From Promethearchaeota archaeon (GTDB lineage Archaea; Asgardarchaeota; Lokiarchaeia; Sigyniarchaeales; SOKP01), in contig SHMW01000009.1 in the NCBI GenBank assembly GCA_008080735.1, positions 28,117 to 92,116 of the forward strand: a stretch of DNA of 64,000 bases, read 5' to 3'. Numbering within the stretch: the stretch's first letter is position 1; each line of letters begins with the position of its first letter. Of this stretch, positions 1 to 28,600 are shown piece after piece. Under the pieces are notes generated by a model. That model was not told the origin of the DNA and did no database searches. It was given only the letters and a program-made list of their open reading frames with translations. A program made the translations under genes and the position numbers.

Positions 1-175
1 TTTGCCCAGTAGAAACAGAAAGCACATCTACCACAGCAATGATAAATCCATATTGTTTGGTAATTATTCCTTCATAGTCTTCGCTGAGAATTAATCGCGC
101 GCTGACTTCTTTGGGCTGACTAAATAAGAATGGAGGAATTTCCACTTTCGCCTCCAAAGTTATGAGTTTAAACAA
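1..175 (-). CDS. rpoE1: DNA-directed RNA polymerase subunit E'/Rpo7, N-terminal part (runs off window start)
   Basis: Manual translation from TTG at 175: MFKLITLEAKVEIPPFLFSQPKEVSARLILSEDYEGIITKQYGFIIAVVDV, the typical Rpo7/Rpb7 N-terminus; absent from the ORF track. Confidence 0.85.
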   Translation of the reverse strand, partial: MFKLITLEAKVEIPPFLFSQPKEVSARLILSEDYEGIITKQYGFIIAVVDVLSVSTGQ

Positions 176-316
176 CTGTTTGACACCGATAAAGAGGATA
201 AAATTTAGTTAAATGTCAAAATGAACTATAACATTAATATTTTGTGGTTGAAGAATTTCGCCTGTAGTCTTGCTCATTCTACTCATTAAACAAGCCTTAT
301 TTTTGGAAAATAAAAA

Positions 317-652
317 TTACCACTCATTACCTTCATTATTGGTAATTTGGCGGAGTTTATATTTTAAATATTCTATTTCTTGTTCTAGTGTATGTATTTG
401 AGAATTTAAAGTCATGATAATTTCATTCCCAAGTGATTTTACATCCTCATTCATAATTTCGTTATTACCAATTTCCTTTAGTATTGATTTGTCCACTTTA
501 TCAAAAATATAGGTTAATTGATAATTTTGTTCAATTTCTAATAATATTTTAAATCCCGTTGCTCCACGCAAAATCAATTGCTTTAAATATAGCAATTGTT
601 CTAATTTTGAGGATCTCTGTTCAAACTCCTCTTCAATCTTCTCTCTATTCAT
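317..652 (-). CDS. hypothetical coiled-coil protein
   Basis: 111-aa ORF with helical/heptad character, co-oriented with rpoE1. Confidence 0.6.
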   Translation of the reverse strand: MNREKIEEEFEQRSSKLEQLLYLKQLILRGATGFKILLEIEQNYQLTYIFDKVDKSILKEIGNNEIMNEDVKSLGNEIIMTLNSQIHTLEQEIEYLKYKLRQITNNEGNEW

Positions 653-886
653 TTATTTCTATAAATCCCAAGATCTTATTGTTTTTCTATTTCAATTTTT
701 ATTACGTTTTAAGCAGAATACTAAAGTTCAGTATAGTTTAGAATATAATCTTAATAATTATTTTAAATCTTATCGGATTCCATAGAAAAATCCTTTGGTG
801 AATATCCTATTTAAGGTTAAACCCTTTTTTAAGCGGTTCTAAAGGCATAAGGTTTAAATTTAGTGTAGGTAATTGATATATAGGAT

Positions 887-1474
887 ATGAAAATTGCGGT
901 GGATGTGGATGGTGTTCTTCTTGATTTAATGGATACATATTGTGAAGTTTATAATGAACAATTTGAAACAAATTATAAAAAAAGTGATGTTACTCGATGG
1001 GATTTTTTCGAGGAATGGGAAATAAGGGAAAGAGATGCGTTTGAGATCTTTCATAAAATATACGAAAATAGCTCAGATATTCCTTTTATTGATGAATATG
1101 CGTTATTTGTGTTAAAAGAAATAAATGAAATCCATCATGTTGATATAGTGTCAGCACGTAGCGAACAATATAGCGTACAATTAGGCGACACCTTGAAGTC
1201 TCATGGAATTATTGATGGGATCCATTATCAGCACCTCATTCTGGTCAATGAAAAGCCTTATGATATCAAACTGAGGTTAAATTATGATCTCTACATTGAT
1301 GATAATCCGCATCTAGCGTGGGCAATTAAAGAGAGAACAGAAATTGTTCTTTTTCTTTATGATCAACCATGGAATCGTAATATTAATGAAAAAAATAAAA
1401 AGAATATTTTTAGAGTAAAGAATTGGATCGATATTAATCGAGAAATAAAAGGTTTAGAATTACTTCTTGAGTAA
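887..1474 (+). CDS. HAD-family 5'(3')-deoxyribonucleotidase-like protein
   Basis: DVDGVL motif I, VSAR motif II, YIDDNP motif IV, C-terminal PWN...RV.NW. Confidence 0.85.
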   Translation: MKIAVDVDGVLLDLMDTYCEVYNEQFETNYKKSDVTRWDFFEEWEIRERDAFEIFHKIYENSSDIPFIDEYALFVLKEINEIHHVDIVSARSEQYSVQLGDTLKSHGIIDGIHYQHLILVNEKPYDIKLRLNYDLYIDDNPHLAWAIKERTEIVLFLYDQPWNRNINEKNKKNIFRVKNWIDINREIKGLELLLE

Positions 1475-1938
1475 CATAGATGGTAAGAAATGGGAGAATC
1501 AAGGATATGGTTATTAAACTCTGGTATTTTTTTTTGAAAACATTGAACTTACCCTCTGTTTCTTAATCTAATTGAAACGATTAACAATATCAAAATTTGT
1601 TATTTAAATCTATAAGGACCAAGATTTAACATCCAAATAGGGGCATCCCATGGGAATTCTATCCTTAAAATATCCTTAATAATAAAAGGCTTAGCAAAAT
1701 AGATATGAAAAATTAACGTATAATTCACTTCCTCTAAACGAATGTTGTTCCGAGCAATCTTTTTATTTTTAATTTATAAAGTGTGGCAGTCCAAATAGAA
1801 AAATAAAGATTACAGTACTAAGAACACTGAAAATGAAGAGTCTCGTAAATCTTAATTTTTTAATGGATCGCTTTAAATAGGACGAGTTTGTTGTATAGAT
1901 CGATTACATTTCGCAATTGAAACAGGGTGTTAGAGTAA

Positions 1939-2184
1939 ATGAGTAAGAGTGATCTCGAGATAATCATCATTGAAAACGTGCGAATTGATGGTGAATACTA
2001 TCCGTACTATCCCCTCATTAACTTAGAATATGCTGAAGAAACTTTAGGCTCAAGAATTTCAAGAAAAATAAAAGAATTGGCAAAAAGCATATTTAGAGCG
2101 TTTAGTTATTATAATAAGACGAGCGTGAGGGCAAAATACGGATCTACAGACGAAAAAGATGAAAAAGAGGATGGAGAAAAATAG
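1939..2184 (+). CDS. small hypothetical protein
   Basis: 81-aa ORF with ATG start and charged tail; no recognised motif. Confidence 0.5.
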   Translation: MSKSDLEIIIIENVRIDGEYYPYYPLINLEYAEETLGSRISRKIKELAKSIFRAFSYYNKTSVRAKYGSTDEKDEKEDGEK

Positions 2185-2401
2185 CATCCCAGTGGCCTAT
2201 CGTCCCGTAGTCTGATGGTTTAATTTTATTTATCAATTATTAACCAAAGAGCTAATTTTTCTCCTGGGATGATATATGATATATTCCAGATTGTATTTAA
2301 AACTCATCAGGCAAATTTAGTCTCGGGATTCAGAAAAGACTTTCCTAAATTTGCTAGTGCTCCTCTCCCTATCTCCAAACCCAAGATAACTTAGGAATTT
2401 T

Positions 2402-2995
2402 TGGGGGAATCCGAGTGTTTATCCATATTCATTTGGAGATTTTCAAGCTGTTGTTGACCTTACTATGTTTGGGTTAATCGGAGCGCTTTTTTTCATGATT
2501 ATTTCAGATCTTATTCGGGTTTTATGGGGTCCGGAATATTCGATGTTTAATTTTTTAACAAAATCCATTCTTAGAAACAAGGAATATAATGCTGTTGGTC
2601 CACAGATATATTTGGTAATAGGTGCAGTCTTTTCCTATTTACTTTATGCGGTTGGTTGGGTAGATATTATGATTGTATATTCTGGGTTATTAATAGCTTG
2701 TTTTTCAGATGCTATTGCTGTTTTAATAGGTCGAAGATTTGGAAATCATAAAGTTGAATGTATCGGTGGAGAAACTAAAACAATCGAAGGATTTATTGCA
2801 GGAATTGCTTGTTCATATATAATAGGATTACTTACGGTTGGTCCCTTTTATTCAATCATAGCAACGCTCATATTCTTTTTATTAGATTATTTTCCTTTAC
2901 GTGTAGCTGATAATATCCTTAATCCAATAGTCATAACTATTGTTTTAGGCCTTTTATCTTATTTTATTGGATTCCCTATTGGAATTTATAATTAG
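2402..2995 (+). pseudogene. 5'-truncated dolichol/phytol kinase-like (CTP transferase family) membrane protein
   Basis: Paralog of the C-terminal half of 6508..7659. Homology extends upstream of the ATG at 2465 (WGNPSVYPYSFGDFQAVVDLT vs WGEVSNYPYVLGSLEGIIDIT) to about 2400, then an in-frame TAA at 2387; the RKSFH motif is missing. Confidence 0.75.
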
Positions 2996-3116
2996 AATTG
3001 GTATTTGACGAATAAATTTTACATAATAGTCCAAAAGATAAGAAAAAGAATTTAAGTTATTAATTTGATTAATTTAATAGATGAATTCTTAGTTAATTAT
3101 TCTAAATCATATAATT

Positions 3117-3824
3117 ATGACTGCTTTGGATCCTAACCGATTTTATATGTTATATATTTATCAAGGAGCCTTACTTGTGTTTTGTTTATTTATAATATAT
3201 AAAATCTTGACACGTAGTAAGAAAAGACTAAATATCGTCTTTAGTATGGTGTATATTTGGAGTGCCGTTGGTTTAGTTTTGAATATGGTATTTGCTTTTA
3301 TTATTATTGAGGAGATTGTTCTTATTTTGGATTTTCTTACCAATTTTAGTGTCGCATTTGCTCCAATCTTCCTTTTGATTTTTAATATGATTTTATTGAA
3401 ATCAGAAAAATACATGAATACTCCAAAACAGCTTGGTATAATTGGAGTGTATGCATTAGTTTTGTTTTTAAAAATATTCTTTTTTGTAGATGATGGTGTG
3501 ATAGTAAATGAATCAACCGATTGGTTTCCCATATTTAGTCTTGCTTATTTATTATATGTAATTGTGATTAGTACTCTATTCACGACTATTCCTATATTAT
3601 ATACCAGTTATAGGATTTATAAGAGATTTGATGACCTTGATATTAAGAAAAGATGGAAATTTTTTATAGTTGGAGTAATTGGATTGATTTTATATATGGA
3701 CTTTGTGTTTATAGCTAATTATACTTCGAATATTATTGTATCAATAGGATTAAGTATTTCGCTGTTGGGCATCTTTTTCTATATATATGCTATGTATTAT
3801 GGAGTGGGGAGACAATTAAAGTAA
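3117..3824 (+). CDS. stand-alone 7TM membrane protein (HisKA_7TM-like)
   Basis: Seven hydrophobic segments; RWKFF before TM6 and a C-terminal YGVGRQ shared with 7864..8601. Confidence 0.75.
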   Translation: MTALDPNRFYMLYIYQGALLVFCLFIIYKILTRSKKRLNIVFSMVYIWSAVGLVLNMVFAFIIIEEIVLILDFLTNFSVAFAPIFLLIFNMILLKSEKYMNTPKQLGIIGVYALVLFLKIFFFVDDGVIVNESTDWFPIFSLAYLLYVIVISTLFTTIPILYTSYRIYKRFDDLDIKKRWKFFIVGVIGLILYMDFVFIANYTSNIIVSIGLSISLLGIFFYIYAMYYGVGRQLK

Positions 3825-3929
3825 TGATATGAGTATGTTTAAATAATATAATATTTCTATTAACTATCTTACTAAGATGATTAAAGAATTAGTTATTTAC
3901 TAATTCTATCAGTATAATATTTCTAATAC

Positions 3930-4105
3930 ATGGTTTTTAAAATGATAATGCAACTAGACCTTACACGTTTTATACAAGTCTACATAATCCAAGGATTAGT
4001 AATTGCGTTATACTTTTTTCTTGCTATTCGTACTATACAAAGAAATAAGAAGAGATTAAATTTAATATTTAGCGGATTCTATTTTTCTATCGGTATTGGG
4101 TTTCC
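3930..4105 (+). pseudogene. 3'-truncated 7TM protein paralog
   Basis: RFIQVYIIQG...NKKRLNLIFSGFYFSIGIG matches the first two TMs of 7864..8601; similarity stops at about 4100. Confidence 0.75.
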
Positions 4106-4537
4106 TAACTTTTTCTCAATAGCACTCAAATCCATATTCTTACCGTAAAATCTATTGAAAATAGCCGCGATTCTGGAAATAATGCTGAACTCCGTCTTCT
4201 CCAAATCTTTCCCATACATCTTATAATGTAAGCCCGATTTCTCGGAAACATATGGCGTTGTGTATGGATTACTAAGAACCCATCCATCAAACATTTCTGT
4301 GATATCTTCTCTAAACTGTTCGTACTGGGAGGAGGTAAGCATCGAACGTATCTCATTCTGATGGGTATTTGGAAAGAGGTTTATAAATTTATTATAGGAG
4401 CGTGTACTTAATACATCTCGGACCCAAAATATTGTCCTAGGTTGAGGTCTCTCCCTATCTAAAAATACCTTCTTTAAATAGTTGGAATCGTCAAACATAA
4501 ATTCTGAGAATCGATGCGTCTCGATCAGAAGATTCAT
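4079..4537 (-). pseudogene. fragment of an unknown soluble protein
   Basis: 152-codon ORF, GC-richer than its flanks; upstream frame broken by stops; downstream end interrupted at the 4101-4111 junction. Confidence 0.45.
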
Positions 4538-4658
4538 GATATCGCCCTCTCATTGGATCCCCCAAAAAGATCCTCATTCTCAAACTCAAGGTTGGGAGAT
4601 GCGATCCTTTTCAGACCTTAACGATGAGATGAAATTCCTTCTCATCTTTAGGAATTAT

Positions 4659-5030
4659 CTAAATTAGTTTTGCAATTTTCTCGGTCGTCCGTTTACAATC
4701 CAGAAAAATGAGCCCGAGTCGGACATCGGGAGTAGTGGAGACTACAAGCACCGCATTTGGACCTGCTGCGAGGACGAGTAGGTAACCATCCGAGCCTTTG
4801 ACCATAATCTGTTCGAGCTCACCTTTGCCCATTTCATGGGCGGCTCTTTCCCCTAGGGACAAGATAGCTGCGGTCATCGCAGCGATACGCGTCTCATCAA
4901 CCCCTTGCGGTAATGCAGACGCAATTGGAAGTCCTTCGACAGATACGATAGCTGTCGATTTGACTTCGGGAATAGCAGCAAGAAGTTGCTTCAGGATTCC
5001 ATCGAGAGTTTCACCAGTAGATTCTTCCAT
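4659..5030 (-). CDS. roadblock/LC7 (MglB-like) domain protein
   Basis: AIVSVEGLPIASALP...RIAAMTAAILSLGERA...GELEQIMVKG..GY. Confidence 0.93.
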   Translation of the reverse strand: MEESTGETLDGILKQLLAAIPEVKSTAIVSVEGLPIASALPQGVDETRIAAMTAAILSLGERAAHEMGKGELEQIMVKGSDGYLLVLAAGPNAVLVVSTTPDVRLGLIFLDCKRTTEKIAKLI

Positions 5031-5322
5031 AAGTTAAGTCTCCAAAAATGTGTTATTTTATGTAATGATTGGATGATATATTATTGTAACCTAGTAAGTT
5101 ATATTTAAACTTAGATTGATATTATTTAATTTTTATTATATTTTAAAACTTTTTTTGTTTTTTCAAATAGAACATATTACCAGATTATTAAGATTTAAAA
5201 CTCTTGCTAATAAATAAAAATTTCGAAAACGATATAATCGGATGGTTAAGCAAATGATGAGTAGATTCTGAGTGGAATCTGAGAGCAAATGTTGTTCATT
5301 CCATCGTGATATCGTGAAAAAC

Positions 5323-6399
5323 TTACATCCCTAAAGATTTATTATATGTCTGAACCGATTTAATCATAGCATATACATTTTCTGGTTTTAAAATTTCATT
5401 TATTTGTTGAGTAGGAGAAATAACTAAGCGAGAGTGAGATTCTTCGGCTGAATGTAATAGGTGTTGTACATAAGAGCGAACTTCTGAGGATTTTGCATAG
5501 GTGAGCATCGCGCCATTATCTATATTTCCGATGAAGCAGATCTCATCCCCGTAGGTTTCAAAAAGGGTAAAAATGTCGTTACCTGCATTTGGTTCGATAC
5601 TTTGGACAGCATCGAACCCCATTTCAATGAATAAGTCAATTATATTGTCAATGTAGCCATCAGAATGGAGGATGAGGTGATTTCCGTGTGAATGAATTGA
5701 GTTTGCTATTATTCGGTATTTCTCTAAAAAGAACTCTTTTATATAGGATTTCGGAATGAAATTCCGCTGATTGTATCCCATATCGTCTGCCACAAGAAAG
5801 ATTTTCGCACCAGCTGCTTGTAAAATTCCCACCAAATCAAGTATATAGTCAAAAAAAAAGTTGATAACAGTCCGTATAAGTGCTGGATTTTGGCGAAATG
5901 CTTTTGAAAATGTAAGAAATCCCATGGACTGCCATGTTTTTTCAAATAAACCGGGTAAAGATAACACAAATTCAATGCCGTAGGTTTGTGCTAAGAAATG
6001 CGCTAATATGTCGATTTCATTTTGCTCGGGAGGTTGAAGCTTCGACCAGTCCTTAACGATCCTTTCACTCTTAAAGACTCCATCCCATGAATACCATCCA
6101 TTCTTAATAATTCTTCCCCACGCATCGACTTTCTCATCTGATTTGGGAGGGGTATACTCAGAGTAAGTTTTTCCCCGTCTAAAATCCCAAAGAGACACTG
6201 CATCGAAGCCCATATTTTTAATCAGAGAAAAGTCCTTTCCATTTAATACAAAGTTATCATTTTCATCGGATTTAATGCCATATTGTTCGAGATAATTTTC
6301 CATAAATGCGTGTTCTGGATATCCCGTGCAATAGAGGGGAATATAGGTCCTTTCAGACTTCTTAAGAACTTCTGTGAACTGAATGATACTCTTCTCCAA
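5323..6399 (-). CDS. uroporphyrinogen decarboxylase / MtaA-CmuA family protein
   Basis: ADDMG, HSDG, GFDAVQSIEP, FIGNID and PENV motifs. Confidence 0.85.
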   Translation of the reverse strand: MEKSIIQFTEVLKKSERTYIPLYCTGYPEHAFMENYLEQYGIKSDENDNFVLNGKDFSLIKNMGFDAVSLWDFRRGKTYSEYTPPKSDEKVDAWGRIIKNGWYSWDGVFKSERIVKDWSKLQPPEQNEIDILAHFLAQTYGIEFVLSLPGLFEKTWQSMGFLTFSKAFRQNPALIRTVINFFFDYILDLVGILQAAGAKIFLVADDMGYNQRNFIPKSYIKEFFLEKYRIIANSIHSHGNHLILHSDGYIDNIIDLFIEMGFDAVQSIEPNAGNDIFTLFETYGDEICFIGNIDNGAMLTYAKSSEVRSYVQHLLHSAEESHSRLVISPTQQINEILKPENVYAMIKSVQTYNKSLGM

Positions 6400-6507
6400 T
6401 TTAAAATTTTAATTTGAATGGTTTTATTCTACATATTTAGGCAATTTAATTAGAAATTTATTTGATTAATTATTCTCAAATATAATTGAATTTTTTGTTT
6501 AGCCATT

Positions 6508-7659
6508 ATGAATTTTGTTATTTTGAATTATTGGGATATTGTTGGCAAGGCATATAATACGACATTAACTTTTATATTATTGGCAATCGTGTTTTTGATG
6601 GTGTATATCGGTAAAACGGGGCGCAAGAAGAATCCCTATGGGGGACTATCAACCTTTGTATGTGCTTCCTTGCTCCTTTTTGTAGCCTATTATAACTCGA
6701 TTATTGGGCTCTTCCAATACCCGCTCACCGGATTTATGATATGGTGGATTGGAATACTGATGGTACTTTTTGGAGGATTCGGATATTTAGTAAAAAAAAC
6801 AGACCGCAAAATGACCGAGGAGGATTTTAATACCTCAAACGGCGACTTACCGCGAATTAAACGGTACATCAAAAAGATGAAAAAACAAAATCCGTACAGA
6901 GAACAGATCCCGATAAAGATGGAAATCATTCGGAAAAGTTTCCATCTTACTGGATTATTATTCATTTTTGGCTATTTTGGATGTATTATACTCCCACCTA
7001 TTGCAGATTTGGCAAATTTAGGGATATTTATTTTGATTAATTCTACGGAGCCATTGTATAATGTACTATGGGGGGAGGTATCTAATTATCCTTACGTTTT
7101 AGGGAGTTTAGAAGGCATCATTGACATCACTTTATTCGGTCTTATTGGAGCATTTATGTTTATGGTCATTTCCGATTTGATCAGGGTTCTGTGGGGGGCA
7201 AAATATTCAATGTTTAATTTTCTGACCCGTTCAGTGCTGCGCAATCAAGAGCATAATGCTGTAGGGCCGCACATATATTTAATTGTTGGAGCAATGTTTA
7301 CATATCTCTTATATGTTTTAGGAGTTGTTCATATTTTAGCGTATACAGCAGGATTAATGATAGCCTGTTTTTCTGACGCGTTAGCTGCCTTAGTTGGAAG
7401 AATTTTTGGAAATAAAAAAGTCATTTGTATTGGAGGGCAAGAAAAAACCATTGAGGGCTTCATCGCGGGTGTTGCTAGTGCCTATTTATTCGGATTGGTT
7501 ATCGTAGGTCCTATCTATGCGATCATTGGAGCATTGATATTTTTCATTTTCGATTATTTTCCCATGGTTATCGCAGATAATATTTTAAACCCCATTTTTA
7601 TCACGTTAGGTATTCAATTATTCCAAGTTATCCTCGGATTTCCCTTAGGATTATTTTAG
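6508..7659 (+). CDS. dolichol/phytol kinase-like (CTP transferase family) membrane protein
   Basis: RKSFH, SDALAALVGRIFG, KTIEG and DNILNP motifs; multi-TM. Confidence 0.8.
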   Translation: MNFVILNYWDIVGKAYNTTLTFILLAIVFLMVYIGKTGRKKNPYGGLSTFVCASLLLFVAYYNSIIGLFQYPLTGFMIWWIGILMVLFGGFGYLVKKTDRKMTEEDFNTSNGDLPRIKRYIKKMKKQNPYREQIPIKMEIIRKSFHLTGLLFIFGYFGCIILPPIADLANLGIFILINSTEPLYNVLWGEVSNYPYVLGSLEGIIDITLFGLIGAFMFMVISDLIRVLWGAKYSMFNFLTRSVLRNQEHNAVGPHIYLIVGAMFTYLLYVLGVVHILAYTAGLMIACFSDALAALVGRIFGNKKVICIGGQEKTIEGFIAGVASAYLFGLVIVGPIYAIIGALIFFIFDYFPMVIADNILNPIFITLGIQLFQVILGFPLGLF

Positions 7660-7863
7660 ATGAGAAGCATCGGGTAATTGTTTTTTAAATTTTTGGCAAT
7701 TTTTTCATGGTCAAATTAGCAACTAATCATGGATAGGTCACTACAAGATGATATTATAGAATATAGTTTTTGATAATAGAGATAATGGAAATCATAGAGA
7801 TAAAATTAAATAGGTATTCAGTTAATAATTTATTATTATTGAATATAAGAATATTATTGGAAT

Positions 7864-8601
7864 GTGGTCATAATTACAGCTTTAGATTTAGATCCGATTC
7901 GATTCTTTCAAATCTATGTCATCCAAGGGCTAATCTTTATTGTATGTATTTTTCTAGGATATCGCACCTTAAAACGCAATAATAAACGAATAAACCAGAT
8001 ATTTTCAGGATTTTATTTTTCTGTAGGACTGGGATTGTTTCTCAATTTTATTTATGCACCCCTCCAGATTGAAGGTTTAGAGGCGGTCGTTCTGATTCTG
8101 AACTTTTTTACTAATTACTTTATTAGTTTAGGACCTATCTTTTTCGTAGTATTTGTACTTTTAATCTATAAATCGGGAAAAGTCATAGATAGTTATAAAC
8201 AGCTCAGCATCATTATTATCTACGGTGCGCTGCTTTTTTTGATGCTCCTTTTCCTTCCATTTGAGGGTGTATCGATAAATCCTGATACTAATTGGAAACC
8301 TGTTTACACTCTGGGCTTTTTTATATATCTTATGCTCGTGCTCTTTCTTGGGGCAACAATTCCTTCCTACTATTATGCTATAAGGATATATACCAATTTC
8401 ACCACAAAAGATCTCAAGGATAGATGGAAATACTTTATTCTTGGAATCACGTTTCTGTTTTTATTCATGTATGGAACCTTTTTTGCTAATTATTTAAATA
8501 TAGACCTTTTTAGGACGATATGGTCCATTATTGGATTATTTTTAGTTATTGCGGGAATCCTATTGATTTATTTCGGGGTCGGGCGACAAATTGAAAAATG
8601 A
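7864..8601 (+). CDS. stand-alone 7TM membrane protein (HisKA_7TM-like)
   Basis: Seven TM segments; paralog of 3117..3824. Confidence 0.75.
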   Translation: MVIITALDLDPIRFFQIYVIQGLIFIVCIFLGYRTLKRNNKRINQIFSGFYFSVGLGLFLNFIYAPLQIEGLEAVVLILNFFTNYFISLGPIFFVVFVLLIYKSGKVIDSYKQLSIIIIYGALLFLMLLFLPFEGVSINPDTNWKPVYTLGFFIYLMLVLFLGATIPSYYYAIRIYTNFTTKDLKDRWKYFILGITFLFLFMYGTFFANYLNIDLFRTIWSIIGLFLVIAGILLIYFGVGRQIEK

Positions 8602-8716
8602 ATCTTCAAAATGAATTTTAAATCATAGCCCTTTTCTTTTTTTATTATTAGCTCTTCTGGTATTAAGAATTTTGCTAAAGATAAAAAAAAATAGCACATT
8701 ATGTAAGGTAATTATC

Positions 8717-9562
8717 ATGATTGAATTAATTCCAGAATTAGCAGAGTTAGAGTTAGCTATTTTTGACCTAGACGGTGTTGTATATCGTGGAAGTCAATTA
8801 ATTCCAAATGTGGATTCGATTATTCAAACCCTAAAGGATAATTCCATTGATGTGGTATTTAATTCAAATAACTCCACCGCAACCAGAAAAGCGTATGTGA
8901 AGAGATTAACTAATATGAATATCCAATGCAAGAGAGAGGACTTTTACACAAGTGCATCGATTACAGCATCCGAGATAACCAAGTTAAACCAGAATGCGAA
9001 AATATTCGTAATTGGAGAGATTGGATTAAAAGAAGAACTCAAAGCAAAAGGTCATTATATAATTAAGCATAAAAAAGAATTCAAGCTCGTAGATTATGTA
9101 ATTGTAGGGTTAGATAGAGATTTTCACTATAAAAACTTGGCAATTGCCCAAAAATGTATTTTAGAAGGAAATGCGATTTTCTATGCTACAAATGCAGACT
9201 CTACACTACCAAGCGAAGATGGTCTAATGCCAGGGGCAGGAGTTATGGTAAACGCCGTCCAAGTTTGTACTGGTCATCCACCCAAGAAAATTTTTGGAAA
9301 ACCTAATCCCTTTGGAATTCTATCAATTTTAGAAGATAGGCAATTAAGTGCTGAAAAAACCTGCATTTTTGGAGATAGATTAAATACTGATATTATGGCA
9401 GGGAATAGGGCAGGAATTAAAACAATCGCAGTTATGACGGGAGTCACGAACAAGAAGGAAATTAATGAACTAAGGAAGAAATCACAAAATTCCGATAAAA
9501 TTGATAAAGATTTACTACCAGATCTAGTATTAGAAAATCTTAATGATCTTTTTGTGCGTTAG
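8717..9562 (+). CDS. HAD-IIA hydrolase (NagD family)
   Basis: FDLDGV, SNNS, GKP and GDRLNTDIMAG; ATG at 8717 preferred over TTG at 8672. Confidence 0.9.
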   Translation: MIELIPELAELELAIFDLDGVVYRGSQLIPNVDSIIQTLKDNSIDVVFNSNNSTATRKAYVKRLTNMNIQCKREDFYTSASITASEITKLNQNAKIFVIGEIGLKEELKAKGHYIIKHKKEFKLVDYVIVGLDRDFHYKNLAIAQKCILEGNAIFYATNADSTLPSEDGLMPGAGVMVNAVQVCTGHPPKKIFGKPNPFGILSILEDRQLSAEKTCIFGDRLNTDIMAGNRAGIKTIAVMTGVTNKKEINELRKKSQNSDKIDKDLLPDLVLENLNDLFVR

Positions 9563-9563
9563 G

Positions 9564-9929
9564 TTAGGCTAATTCTAATTCTCTGAGCGCCGCAATAGGA
9601 AGATATCCATTTTCCTGTCCGCTATCGAGATTATTAAGAACTTTTTGAGCAATTACCTCTATCTCTTTTTCGAAATCTTCTGGATCTTCAAGAATGTTCA
9701 ATATCAATACGACAAAATAATTAGAGGACGGACCAGAATAATAGGAAATAAAATTTATCGATTCTAAATTAAGCCACGCCGTTCCTTCTTGCCTGGAGTA
9801 TTGGTGCATGTTATATACTTGAAGTAAGGTTTTTTTAGATATACGAGATGCGATCTCCTTCGGATGTTTATCTAAAATTTCTATTCCACTTCTATTATTA
9901 AAATGGAGTAACAAGAGCCCTTCTGGCAT
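9564..9929 (-). CDS. small longin/uDENN-like alpha/beta protein
   Basis: GLLLLHFNNRSG.EIL...P start, beta-rich middle, C-terminal helix; fold inferred by eye. Confidence 0.5.
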   Translation of the reverse strand: MPEGLLLLHFNNRSGIEILDKHPKEIASRISKKTLLQVYNMHQYSRQEGTAWLNLESINFISYYSGPSSNYFVVLILNILEDPEDFEKEIEVIAQKVLNNLDSGQENGYLPIAALRELELA

Positions 9930-10264
9930 TTTTCCCTAACCACTGTTAATCTTATTCTTATCATAATAATACAAATGCGAATTTATAAAATTTGATTAAT
10001 TTGATTAAGATTCCCTCAATATCAAATATTTAAAAAATCGCCTCTACTTATCAAATATAGCATTAAATGACGCAATTTATTATATAAAAGAATTTCAATC
10101 AAATGCAGCTAATTCTGGCGGAGAAAAAAGTGTTTAAATATTAGCATGATATGTTCCTTTTAGAGGCCTAAGATATTAATTAAATTATAGAAAACTTGCA
10201 GAGACTTTATATTTAAAATACTTAATAATTTATAATCTATAATCCTTAAGAAAGAGGGAGAGAA

Positions 10265-10462
10265 TTGGATAATAGAATTGAGCAGAGGATAATGGAATTA
10301 CAGCGTGCCATCGAGATTTTGGAAGATCATCTCAATAAATTTGGCTCAAACATAAATTCAGACCAAGTATCGTTCATTCGAGATAAGCTTGAATTATATA
10401 AGCGTGAAATAAAAATTCGGAAAGATTTTCCAGTCCATTTGGCAAGATATTCGAAAATATGA
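10265..10462 (+). CDS. small helical hairpin hypothetical protein
   Basis: 65 aa, TTG start preceded by purine-rich GAGGGAG. Confidence 0.65.
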   Translation: MDNRIEQRIMELQRAIEILEDHLNKFGSNINSDQVSFIRDKLELYKREIKIRKDFPVHLARYSKI

Positions 10463-11218
10463 ATCTGTTTTATTTGTAAATAATAAAAATCAAGTTAACT
10501 GATATTCTAACGAATTAGTTTACATGAGTGTATTTTGTTTTATTTTTTTATCATCCAATTAATATAAAGGATTTATATTGAACTTTAACTAGATAGTTAA
10601 AATAGAAATAGACAATCACATACATTCGAAATTGCGTGAGGTAGAAATATTATAATTTAGTAATTGTTGGAATTTGAGAATTATTTTAGACAAATGTATT
10701 CTTAAGTTGATATGCAAAAATAATTTCTTCCTTTCATAGGCAGCCTTGATAGCTTTTATTTCTGGATGCTATGGAAAAATAGAGAAAAAAATATGCTACC
10801 TTATATATTCAAATTGTTTTTGCCAAATACAATTTAAGCAAAATACAATATTACACTTAAAGATTGAATATACTTTGAAAATTTTTATGGGATGGCCATT
10901 TTTATTCCATAGTATTGCATAGAGTCCCCGACAAATTATGTCTACGGACATCTTTAAAAATGTCTTCGCAAATAGTCAAGAAAATTGACTCTGATTTATA
11001 TATCAATTTTAAAATAAACTAAGCAGAAATAAGATAAGTTGGAATCTCTAAGACGAATATTCAAAGAATAAATTACGTAAGCTACTTAGAAATGGAAATA
11101 AAACATTTCATTAGTCATAGGGTTTACAATTATTATTATTAAGGTGTTAATAAGGATATTAACTCATTAATAACTGCCTAATAATTCAATATGACCGAAT
11201 AGAACAAGTTTTGAGGTA

Positions 11219-11782
11219 TTAGATGTGCTTGGTCTCTTGAGTTGCTATACCAGATCTCTGCAATAATAATCGTGTAATCGTCTCGAATATTTTTTCGACA
11301 TTTTTTCCCGTCTTCGCAGAGCATTCCATATATTCATACAGATTCTGGCTTCTTACTACCGCCTCCGCTTGTTCACGAGACACAGACCGTTTATACTCAA
11401 GATCTAATTTTCCTCCCACCATTAGGACTGGTAACGTATTACCAGATTGTTTCAAATGATAACCATCCCTGAAAATATTAAGCCAATCTTCGAAATTTTT
11501 CAGACTTGTGTATCGAGTGATGTCAAACATAAAGATTCCTCCAGATGAACCCGCAACATAGCTTGGAAGTAAGAACCGAAATCTATCTTCACCAGCAAAA
11601 TCCCAGATTTGCAGTGAAACTTTTTTCCCGTACATTGTTAGTTTCTTTACATAAAAATCTACCCCGATTGTCATCGTTGTGGAAGTATCAAAAATACCAG
11701 TGAGAAATCTCTTCACTAGAGTTGTCTTTCCTACTCCTCCATCTCCAAAGATTACAATTTTGAAAAGCGCATCGCTAGGAAT
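11219..11782 (-). CDS. Rab-like small GTPase
   Basis: G1 GDGGVGKT lies upstream of the track start; TIGVDF, WDFAG, GKLD and CSAK; probable ATT start at 11782 behind AGGAGG. Confidence 0.9.
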   Translation of the reverse strand: MPSDALFKIVIFGDGGVGKTTLVKRFLTGIFDTSTTMTIGVDFYVKKLTMYGKKVSLQIWDFAGEDRFRFLLPSYVAGSSGGIFMFDITRYTSLKNFEDWLNIFRDGYHLKQSGNTLPVLMVGGKLDLEYKRSVSREQAEAVVRSQNLYEYMECSAKTGKNVEKIFETITRLLLQRSGIATQETKHI

Positions 11783-12264
11783 GATATATTCCTCCTTTTT
11801 GAAATTCTAATTGAGAGTTGAATACCCATGAATCGAAAACCCAAGTTTGAAAATATGACATTACAAATTTCTCTTACTATTTCAATTTTTTCATAGATAA
11901 AGCTTTGAAAGGTAAACTATATTCTTAATCAAATCTACCCAACTTTACAATATTATAAATATAATAAAACAAGCTGTTAAAAAAAATTTGTATTTTCACA
12001 AAAACCCTATGAAAACTGGAATTTTTTTCTTAGAAATACCTAATTTTTTAAAAAAAATAAGATATATTACTAATATAGTTTTACATTTTTGTTTGGAATA
12101 TTGATTCAAGTTGTTAGAGCAGATTAATTAGAGATAGATTTATACATTTTGATTAGGGAATACATAATTTTAAAATCTCTATACTTACATATTGAGAATC
12201 AAAAAATAGAAAAAGTTGAACAAGGAATTATATATACTAAATAAAACCTCAAAGACTGAAGAAA

Positions 12265-25650: not shown

Positions 25651-28600
25651 TTATAATTCTATCGGCAACAAACTTTCTTCTTCTTCAAAAAGTGGGAGAT
25701 TACGAAGCATTTGATTTATGGTGGATAAGAATTTGTTGATATCATATTCTATTAGGTCAATGATGAATTGTATCATCATAAGGGTAAATAATTCACTTAC
25801 TATACCACGCGATATACCCAATGAATTCAGAAAAGATTCAACATTTTTTTTTACATCGCTTAGCGCAATATTGGTTTTTTTAGAGCATATTACATACAAT
25901 AATAACATTAATGATCCCATTTTATAATCTTTCCGTCCAGCAAATTTCTTTGCTAAATCTAAATACTCTGTTGATGCCTCTTCTAACGCTCCCTTTGATA
26001 AATGCTCCAATATAATATCGTAATATCGTTTCCTCATAGCGCTTCTCTTTTTAAACATCTCCTTAAATTCAGAGCGATTATCTTTTAGTTTCTGATTTAT
26101 TATATCTATTTTTTGATTAAGTTCGCGTAATTTTTTAGACTTTTCTTCTTTCTCTTCTTTTGATAAAAGTTTTTTAGGGGATTTAAATTCAAGATCTTGT
26201 TCTAAATACGACTTTATAAGGTTTTTTTCCATTTCGAATAATATAAGATTATCCTTGAAAAAATTAAGCGAAAGTTGTATCAAATCATCAATTTTAGCTT
26301 GCCACGCTTTCAAAAATTCTTTTAAAAGCCTAATTTCTGGAAGTGTTGAAAGTCGTGTATGTTCACCCAATAATTTTTCCAGATTAGTATATGCTATCTC
26401 CTCATGTTCGTTAAATATAAAAATTAACGTAGAAAGTATCAAACACACAGCCGCATGTTTTTCAAAATCTTTATCAATAAGTTCCTGAATGAGATCATTA
26501 TAAGTTGATGCTGCTTTTATATATTCATCTTTATTTATGTTTTCCAAAATACCCTCATAATATCTCTTTTTCATTAGCTTCCGTTTTGCTATATCTTGCT
26601 TATCCCTTTGTATATTTTCAGATATGTTAATAATATTCTTTTTTACCGTGTCTTTATCTAGTTCGGTAGATTCTTCTGGTTTAGATGTGGGTTCTCCAAC
26701 ATATTCGACACCTAAGATATCATATAGGAGTTTTTTCTCCTCCTCAAATAGAGGCAGATTTTCAATAAAAGACAATGCTTCTTCTAATTTATTCTGATCC
26801 TTTGCTTTATGGAGATCAATAATATATTCAACTAATAATACAGGAAATGTATCCAAAAAGAGTTGATTTGAAGAAGTGAGAGATTTAATATACTTAGCAA
26901 AGGCTTTTATCTTATCTTGTTTTATTCGAATCAGTGAAAGAATTGCGAGTGATACTGCCGCAAGATAATATTTTCGAAGATCATTCATTTTTTCTACAGT
27001 ATTTTTATAAATTTCTGCTGCTTTCTCATATTCTTCATTTTCTAATAGTTTAAGACCTTCGTTAAAATATGCTCGTTTTAATCCTTTTCGCTGCCTTAAT
27101 TCAAATTCTTTATCCAACCGGGCATCTTGTGATTTTTTTTTTATAATTGATAATCTTTCTTGTAATGATTTCTTTTTCAGCGCCGCTTCAACTTCTTTAG
27201 CCCGAGAGGCGATCATTTCCTCTTCTGAGCTTGATAATTTATTGTAAACTTCTTTTTTATAGAATTTATCTTCAATTTTATCCAGATAACTTAAAGCGGA
27301 AGATAAATCTCCTAATTCAATGAATTGTTCGGAAATAACTTTATATATTTCGTCAAAGTCAGGTTCGTAATTTTCCAAATATGCATTTGAAATATTTTGT
27401 GCTCTCTTTATTAATTCAATTGCATAATTTATGCTTGATCGACTCTCCTCTCGCTTAATACTATTTAAAGCTTCTTTATTTATGATTGTGATGAATAGTT
27501 TGCTTAGTTCTTGAGATTGTTCATAAAGCATTTGATCTCGATATATTGAATTGGCTTTCTCTAGCAAGTCTTCAATTTTTTCATAACTGGATATCTCACT
27601 TAATTGCTTTATACTTTCTATTAAAAATGGAAATGCTTGTTTAAGATATTCCTTTTTAATTGTTTTAGTTTTTATCATCAGATAGGTATCAAAAAATTTT
27701 TCTATTTGATTTCCTTCTAATAAAATGTTCAAAGATTCACATAAGAGATCATCAGCTATCTTTTGCTCTCCAATATTTATAAGTTCTCTTGCATGAGATT
27801 CTAAGTAAGCTGCCGCTCTTATATAATGGTTTTTTTCTACGAGCGTATTAGCGTTTTTCAGTTTTTCTTTATTTAGAGATTCAATTAGTTCATTTTCTGA
27901 TTTCATAAAGGAATTGATAATCTCAATTCCCTCTTTTAAATCTCTTTGTAGAGCTTCTCTTCGTAATTTTTTATTCTCATCTTCTACTTCAGAAGTATAT
28001 TCTGTTAATTCCTTTTTAAGAGCTAAAGAATCAATTTCATTTAGTAGGTACGTTGCCATTCCAAAGTCTTGTTTATGTAGGAATTGTTTTATGATTTCTT
28101 CTAAATGTTCATCTAGATTAATTTTTTCCACATCAAATGCTTCCCACATATTTTCGATCTCATCATAAGTTTTCTTCGCTTCATAGGTTTCCTTATTGTT
28201 GATATTTTTTTCCAATATCTTAATTAATATTTCAACGAGTTTATCAGTGAATTTTTCCATTGATTCAAAAAGGCCTTCCCTCTGATAGGTGTGGATGCTA
28301 ATATATAATTGTTCCCTTGCTGCTCTCAAATTACCAATCGAAACGAGATAATCTGCCGCTGATAATACTTTTTCTGTTAAATCTTCCAGAGTCTGTTTTA
28401 TTTCTTGATGAGGTAATCTCTCTAATATAGTAAATGCATTTTCTACTCGACACGCAGATATCCAAGAATTTATCGCCAATTTAAATGATTTTATAATTAA
28501 ATCTTTATTTTTAAGTTCGATTAAAGACCATTGGGCAGCACTTTCATATTGACGTGCGGCAAACTCATAATCGCCCTTTGTAAATAATTTATTCCCTTCA

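Follow-up and report, generated by a model that had tools for sequence, protein, structure and literature searches.

A kinase and 7TM gene fragment in a Promethearchaeota genome as a probable relic of horizontal transfer joined by illegitimate recombination

Homology-facilitated illegitimate recombination is known from work in Acinetobacter and Streptococcus, and the capture of gene fragments by transposons is known from Pack-MULEs, Helitrons, and ISCR-type elements. To our knowledge, joints made by illegitimate recombination have rarely been described at base resolution in Asgard archaea. Aloposons and integrated viruses of Asgard archaea integrate at tRNA genes, and aloposons carry giant genes (PMC8813620). 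The locus described here is like these elements in that genes have moved between Asgard genomes and form strain-specific islands, but it has no tRNA gene within 12 kb and no integrase, and its island is only 3.2 kb of remnants. As in Pack-MULEs, Helitrons, and ISCR-type elements, a chromosomal piece cut in mid-gene is found in a new place; however, terminal inverted repeats inside both ends, hairpins, and a transposase are all absent, a target duplication is probably absent too, and the piece is present once. A partial, collinear kinase and 7TM copy near a first one is also what segmental duplication leaves behind as paralogue pseudogenes, although here the fragment resembles the locus of another species far more than the one beside it. 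The nearest likeness is to xenologous fragments acquired by illegitimate recombination, where DNA of a related species is joined to unrelated DNA with short or absent homology and without a transposase or integrase, and truncated genes stand beside an intact one. The homology-facilitated form of that process differs from our case, which has no homologous anchor at either end and in which the insert adjoins the homologous resident locus and does not lie within it.

The window, that is, the whole stretch of 64,000 nucleotides that was analyzed, is positions 28117–92116 of contig C9 of a metagenome-assembled genome (4.1 Mb, 140 contigs, 93% complete, 7% contamination), with a G+C content of about 31%. 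Relatives of this genome in public databases carry the names Lokiarchaeota or Promethearchaeota. The features that concern us, including those defined by comparison with the congener G003, are as follows.

887–1474, plus strand: left anchor, a gene of 195 aa, with homologues beside the Roadblock gene in G005 and G004, and syntenic with contig C266 of G003
1475–2397, no strand: left part of the island, with an orphan ORF at 1939–2184 (81 aa) and a 26-codon minus-strand open frame at 2317–2397
2387–2397, no strand: left motif TAACTTAGGAA, just outside the donor-homologous DNA; homology with G003 begins at 2398
2398–2995, plus strand: 3′ half of the kinase gene, for a CTP_transf_1-type membrane protein, corresponding to residues 188–383 of the full-length form
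3117–3824, plus strand: 7TM-A, an intact 7TM gene, 235 aa
3930–4112, plus strand: 7TM-B′, a second 7TM gene reduced to about 60 codons at its 5′ end; the ORF continues to 4148
4079–4537, minus strand: ORF of 152 aa, the last 8–10 codons of which are antisense to the fragment
4102–4111, no strand: right motif TTCCTAACTT, probably within the donor-homologous DNA
4659–5030, minus strand: right anchor, a Roadblock/LC7 gene (Pfam PF03259, E = 3e-21), 88–90% identical in amino acids in congeners and syntenic
6508–8601, plus strand: resident locus, with a full-length kinase-like gene (6508–7659) and one 7TM gene (7864–8601)

Three pieces make up the fragment at 2398–4112: a dolichol-kinase-like gene represented by its 3′ half, a 7TM gene that is complete, and another 7TM gene of which the first 60 or so codons are present. 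In tblastn, the full-length kinase-like protein (383 aa) matched 2402–2989 from residue 188 to its end with 62% amino acid identity, and the resident 7TM protein matched the whole gene at 3117–3824 with 39% identity and the stub at 3948–4130 with 53% (residues 7–68). The second 7TM reading frame starts at 3930, and its similarity fades after about 60 residues, near 4100–4114, so the gene truncations near 2400 and 4100 described in the original prediction are real. Two nucleotides are deleted from 7TM-B′ relative to G003, at 4101 and ten bases short of its end. The kinase half contains an ORF of 176 aa that starts at an internal ATG (2465). The match to Pfam PF01148 (CTP_transf_1) scores 22.8 bits for the fragment and 18.1 bits for the full-length copy, with a gathering cut-off of 24, and relatives of the kinase-like protein are labeled ‘dolichol kinase’ in database sources. 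The 7TM proteins have no match in Pfam; they belong to an uncharacterized family, mostly of Promethearchaeota sequences, with 1–9 copies per genome among those in which the family was searched, and the hydropathy of 7TM-A is compatible with seven helices. A second copy of the fragment was sought in the genome and none was found. The resident locus begins about 2.4 kb downstream of the fragment (4 kb from start to start) and is without any 7TM-A gene. 7TM-A is the one complete gene brought by the fragment, and the genome has gained one 7TM paralogue by this route, as the original prediction proposed.

The fragment sits in a 3.2-kb island (1475–4658) between the two conserved anchor genes, in what is a variable slot. 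The anchor genes are separated by about 60 bp in G005 and by about 400 bp in G004; the slot in G003 has about 2.3 kb of unrelated ORFs, and G006 has a block of about 10 kb adjoining an MtaA-like gene. Besides the fragment, the island holds the orphan ORF of 81 aa, about 200 bp of non-coding-looking DNA, and the minus-strand ORF of 152 aa. Searches of 40 relatives gave no DNA or protein match for the left part of the island, 1475–2397, other than chance-level stretches of 28–64 nt (E ~1e-4), and none was found elsewhere in the same genome for 2100–2397 or in 40–60 relatives for the island flanks. The 81-aa ORF was found only in this genome and on one JGI/IMG contig, a second copy of the kinase is absent from the other five congeners searched, and Rfam has no match over 1–10000. 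These searches show a lineage-specific island that is absent from the relatives.

The DNA outside the two ends of the fragment had been read as one gene split in two. The right-hand side is a real ORF, for which an exhaustive search of 1.8 billion representatives yielded only three distant homologues. The 152-aa product matches residues 972–1115 of a protein of 1115 aa, residues 645–818 of a protein of 1187 aa with a PD-(D/E)XK tail, and the C-terminal part of a protein of 473 aa. It is most likely the 3′ remnant of a gene from a rare family encoding proteins of about 1100 aa. Two of the three homologues stop where residue 144 of the ORF aligns, which is the junction with the fragment; hence, a left-hand continuation of the ORF is not needed, and the right junction, or a point near it, looks like the natural end of the ancestral large gene. 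The left flank offers only 26–27 open codons with no support from the family profile, and we estimate that a 26-codon open frame would occur by chance in roughly one frame in eight at the local base composition. This left frame is in phase with the right ORF once 2398–4111 is removed, and the frame that results from deleting one TAACTT copy together with the insert ends at a stop following ...KLSWVWR, as had been noted. A continuation of the ORF in the left flank was sought in three ways and rejected. The three homologues match the flank weakly, with a best E of 1.2; a restricted shuffle gave p = 0.001 against one homologue, but the similarity is to an N-terminal domain part and not to the continuation; and the family profile, run over the six-frame genome, does not recover the left flank. 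Searches of PADLOC and PHROGs returned no significant match to the flank ORFs or to their large homologues. NCBIfam likewise yielded none for the two largest homologues, the one match, to Cas2b, being sub-threshold (E = 0.0015). The reading of one split gene finds no support in these results.

Where did the fragment come from? Syntenic loci in relatives were retrieved by searching with the resident kinase. In G003, the kinase, 7TM-A, and 7TM-B genes are intact and lie in a row, and their products are 91%, 85%, and 87% identical to those of the kinase half, 7TM-A, and 7TM-B′, respectively. One blastn alignment covers 2398–4112 against this locus with 82% nucleotide identity (86% for the kinase half), and the identity stays at 77–90% over genes and spacers alike, with sharp ends. 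Against the resident locus of its own genome, the fragment has only 67% nucleotide identity, with 62% amino acid identity for the kinase and 53% for 7TM-B′ against 7864–8601. As background, 35 other DNA matches to G003 can be detected over 60 kb of the window, at 66–77%, all below the value for the fragment. No other DNA in the window is thus as close to G003, even though the fragment encodes fast-evolving membrane proteins. The closest full-length kinase among 5.8 billion proteins is that of G003 alone, at 91%, with the next at 65%, and 7TM-A has 85% identity with its G003 counterpart and 49% with the next best anywhere. No closer donor was obtained either from that search or from a metagenome scan, in which the best match was 63%.

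The maximum likelihood tree of the C-terminal kinase halves places the fragment as sister to G003 (100/99) and the resident kinase as sister to that of G006, the closest relative (97/94). A clade of the fragment and the resident kinase is rejected by the AU test (ΔlnL 127, p = 3e-5). Identity and phylogeny together show a xenologue, horizontally acquired, and not a mobilized piece of the neighboring locus. The original prediction had a fragment of the host's own genes being mobilized, with a donor locus holding the intact kinase and second 7TM gene still to be located. Much of this survives, as the fragment is collinear, is cut in mid-gene at both ends, and lies amid unrelated DNA with no transposase or long repeats, and a donor-type locus does exist in G003. 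What does not survive is the source, which is not the resident locus or any other set of the host's own genes.

The divergence from G003 was examined further. For the kinase half, dN/dS is 0.057 and dS is about 0.74–0.75; for 7TM-A, the values are 0.10 and about 0.85. The donor was therefore not G003 itself, and the genes were under selection while most of the divergence built up. Of the 38 residues that are invariant in the family, 37 are retained in the kinase half, which has 12 changes on its own branch compared with 5 on the G003 branch, a mild excess that is not significant. 7TM-A is still intact and looks constrained. The other two pieces, the kinase half and the 7TM-B stub, are incomplete genes, although a truncated product of the kinase half may conceivably still be in use.

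We suggest that the fragment was left behind by a horizontal transfer and that illegitimate recombination made its joints, and we would put the probability of this reading at roughly 75%. A lineage close to G003 would have held the intact kinase-like, 7TM-A, and 7TM-B genes in the ancestral syntenic position. A copy of this G003-like locus would then have entered the host lineage and landed in the variable slot between the two conserved genes, where it now adjoins unrelated orphan DNA on both sides. These joints were probably made by non-homologous or microhomology-guided, that is, illegitimate, recombination. The 1.7-kb fragment may have been captured as such at a break; alternatively, deletions may later have cut down a larger insertion. 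The direction, from the G003-like lineage to the host lineage, is suggested by synteny and by a non-significant AU result. The G003 copy lies between an MtaA-like gene and a HAD-type phosphatase gene, which is the usual position in the family, and this position together with the tree makes transfer from a G003-like lineage the simplest reading. The free tree puts G003 and the fragment outside a clade of the other six genus sequences, but this placement is not significant; the AU test leaves room for a single genus clade including G003 (p = 0.29), and the G003 copy may thus have been inherited vertically.

The alternative that survives best, though we consider it unlikely, is transfer in the other direction, in which the host had a complete second locus in the island, G003 acquired it, and the fragment is what deletions left behind. 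The position of G003 and the fragment in the free tree would agree with this, as would the gene remnants that form the island flanks and indicate that deletions have occurred there. However, the placement outside the genus clade lacks significance, and the G003 copy sits in the ancestral MtaA-like/HAD-type position, as in most of the family. Ancient paralogy without any transfer, with two ancestral loci of which G003 kept one and the host kept the other plus a stub, would also be consistent with the genus clade including G003 and the fragment that the AU test tolerates. We regard it as very improbable, because the fragment and G003 differ by 9% in amino acids whereas kinase orthologues in the genus differ by 23–46% (23% for the closest relative, G006), and a non-functional stub would be expected to diverge faster, not five times slower. 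Furthermore, each of the other five congeners searched has a single copy.

We next consider what the ends of the fragment say about the joining, for which illegitimate recombination is our preferred explanation. The short motifs are where the original prediction had placed them, with TAACTT at 2387–2392 and 4106–4111, TTAGGAA at 2391–2397, and TTCCTAA at 4102–4108. The left motif precedes the donor-homologous DNA, and upstream of 2398 nothing significantly similar to the G003 locus is seen. The right motif aligns at 9 of 11 positions with G003 TTTCTAAATTT after the 2-nt gap, and a tail match of this quality is expected by chance in about 1% of cases; should it be a chance match all the same, the right boundary would fall at 4101 and the motif would be target sequence. 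Terminal inverted repeats do not fit a left motif that is outside the donor homology, and a target duplication is hard to reconcile with a right motif that is probably inside it. The left copy of TAACTT is outside the donor DNA and the right copy aligns to donor DNA, unless that tail match is chance. The two motifs amount to one 10-nt inverted repeat with a single mismatch, the near-palindromic core of which accounts for the ‘direct repeat’ as well. An inverted repeat of this kind is found near both of two random positions 1715 nt apart in 1.0% of cases within ±12 nt and in 2.3% within ±15 nt, and a direct repeat of at least 6 nt plus an inverted repeat of at least 7 nt arose in 0.9–2.4% of simulated trials. 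These chance figures of about 1–2% are nominally unusual, for a motif pair that was picked post hoc.

Two further observations concern the left end. A kinase homology extending to the left of 2398 was considered and rejected, since the HMMER stretch to residue 170 passes through a stop and the local DNA alignment scores below the shuffled mean. A patch matching at 13 of 16 positions is seen at 2363–2380. Fuzzy searches of the genome for five possible joined sites did not find an empty site, and two runs had no joint that skips the insert.

Could an element have moved the fragment? No recombinase was found near it, and contig C9 has no tyrosine recombinase or Y1 transposase; matches to PF00589 are only on contigs C66 and C44, the sole match to a Y1 transposase is on C36, and 29 kb separate the fragment from the nearest TnpB-like match. 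There are no tRNA genes in 1–12000, no short-range inverted repeats (hairpins) at either end, and no flanking direct repeat beyond chance. For a DNA transposon, the left arm (2391–2397) is outside the donor DNA, the inverted repeats are not inside both ends, and neither a nearby recombinase nor further copies are found. An IS200/IS605- or Helitron-like element would have subterminal hairpins and a Y1 enzyme nearby, and an integrase island would have a tRNA gene, an integrase, and an att-type border repeat; none of these is present. Homology-facilitated illegitimate recombination fares no better, as both flanks are orphan and there is no anchor homologous to the recipient. Thus, the hallmarks of a transposon are lacking at the fragment.

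Site-specific or element-mediated capture, in which a recombinase or nuclease acting at the TTAGGAA/TTCCTAA core moved the fragment, was part of the original prediction. It draws on the imperfect 10-nt inverted repeat within 12 nt of both breakpoints, with its chance of about 1–2%, and on the fact that, with a right boundary at 4101, the prediction for the empty site is a 20-bp near-palindrome centered on GAATTC. We give it little credence. It is a single instance in a single-copy fragment, with one motif outside and the other probably inside the donor homology; the predicted cognate recombinase is not in the neighborhood, with no recombinase or Y1 enzyme on the contig, the TnpB-like match 29 kb off, and no tRNA gene within 12 kb. 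The motif was also predicted at other gene truncations, but the break of the other 5′-truncated 7TM paralogue, on contig C29, is without it. There are four motif copies in the island, and the genome has 58 clusters of at least four within 2.3 kb, so there is no clustering beyond the genome background; GAATTC is not avoided in the genome. The short end motifs are not transposon ends and are at most a short palindromic or microhomologous joining site. The inverted repeat at the ends, at about 1–2%, is otherwise unaccounted for by illegitimate recombination of a transferred fragment.

A more speculative possibility, and a long shot in our view, is that the motif pair did not arise by chance and that a 20-bp near-palindrome (half-site AACTTAGGAA, GAATTC center) was cut centrally and sealed with DNA from a neighbor species. 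The break would have been made by a sequence-specific nuclease or at a fragile hairpin, and the right arm would be an imperfect microhomology. If this were true, palindrome breaks would be a repeatable entry point for foreign fragments in Asgard archaea, including those of the expanded 7TM family.

Segmental duplication within the genome, leaving a decayed partial copy of the resident locus at 6508–8601, would account for the shared gene order and orientation only 4 kb apart, but it is scarcely credible given the identities to the resident locus (62% amino acid, 67% nucleotide) versus G003 (91%, 82%), the AU rejection of a clade of the two (p = 3e-5), and the lack of 7TM-A in the resident locus. 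An assembly or binning chimera, with reads of a co-occurring relative stitched into the contig, might be suspected in a metagenome bin with an estimated 7% contamination and an insert that resembles a species of the same genus, but we give it next to no weight, as synteny with relatives holds on both sides, an insert with no more than 82% identity to G003 is not G003 DNA, and the junctions recur in other assemblies, as follows.

Contigs made by a second assembler in two runs of one study, which may include the source sample, bridge both junctions (2398 and 4112) without differences and at similar depth, in agreement with the check for spanning sequence that had been proposed. Four variant proteins, for the 81-aa ORF, the kinase piece, 7TM-A, and the 152-aa ORF, differ from those in the window by 1–3 residues (one residue for 7TM-A), and each is on one JGI/IMG contig of 32,493 bp, probably the same contig for all four. 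The 152-aa ORF of this variant strain has the same junction-spanning tail antisense to the fragment. The bridging contigs and the variant-strain contig together show that the junctions exist in at least two strains. The junctions are, therefore, real and are not a mis-assembly.

These results reveal no new mobile element and no new mechanism. What appeared to be a local duplication of kinase and 7TM genes is better read as an import from another species, which corrects an easy misreading of such loci. Read as a relic of horizontal transfer, the fragment provides a base-level example of gene flow among Loki-type Asgard archaea without a recombinase, and it illustrates one way in which an Asgard-specific 7TM family may gain members.

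The neighbourhood of the MtaA-like gene is variable, and a further sign of this is that the closest relative, G006, carries a block of about 10 kb adjoining the MtaA-like gene, made up of eight genes on the same strand (positions 400–10100 of locus L026, on contig C47), whereas G000 holds only the Roadblock gene at this position. Directly 3' of the Roadblock stop codon, at window positions 4633–4656, there is a 7-bp stem (AATTCCT ... AGGAATT) with a 10-nt loop, and a third TTAGGAA falls within it. No conservation of this stem was found 3' of the Roadblock gene in 6 relatives.

An exact 12-nt repeat, CTCTCCCTATCT, is present at 2363–2374 and 4449–4460. Both copies encode DRER on the minus strand, one in the open frame of the left flank of the fragment and the other in the 152-aa ORF of the right flank. 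The repeat may have arisen by chance, or it may be the remnant of a second decayed copy of the gene family of the 152-aa ORF. A 456-codon open frame on the minus strand of another G000 contig (C109:1782–3149) matches the rare-domain profile of the 152-aa ORF with E = 5e-6, and it is possibly a full-length paralogue of this family within G000. The left flank also contains strain variants at 2226, 2307, 2310, and 2340; run X2 gives a 2-nt insertion, and run X1 gives three substitutions, in a single low-depth contig. A stretch at 1597–1631 has a 31–35-nt match, at 89–90%, to G006 (C105) and to G003 (C354, close to the contig end). Either a small conserved non-coding element or chance could account for it.

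A 7TM paralogue with 49% identity to 7TM-A, the intact 7TM gene of the fragment, is found elsewhere in G000 (C29:31011–31643, locus L003). It is missing the first ~30 codons and is without a start codon, and its truncation point coincides with a G+C-rich hairpin (GCCTCCT...AGGAGGC).

The number of 7TM genes was compared with L007 and L026 of G006 and L027 of G003 at one slot in the window:

7660–8671, with the kinase-like gene on one side and the HAD-type gene on the other

G006 lacks a 7TM gene in this slot, G000 has one, and G003 has two. Among the congeners, it is a place of gain or loss of 7TM genes.
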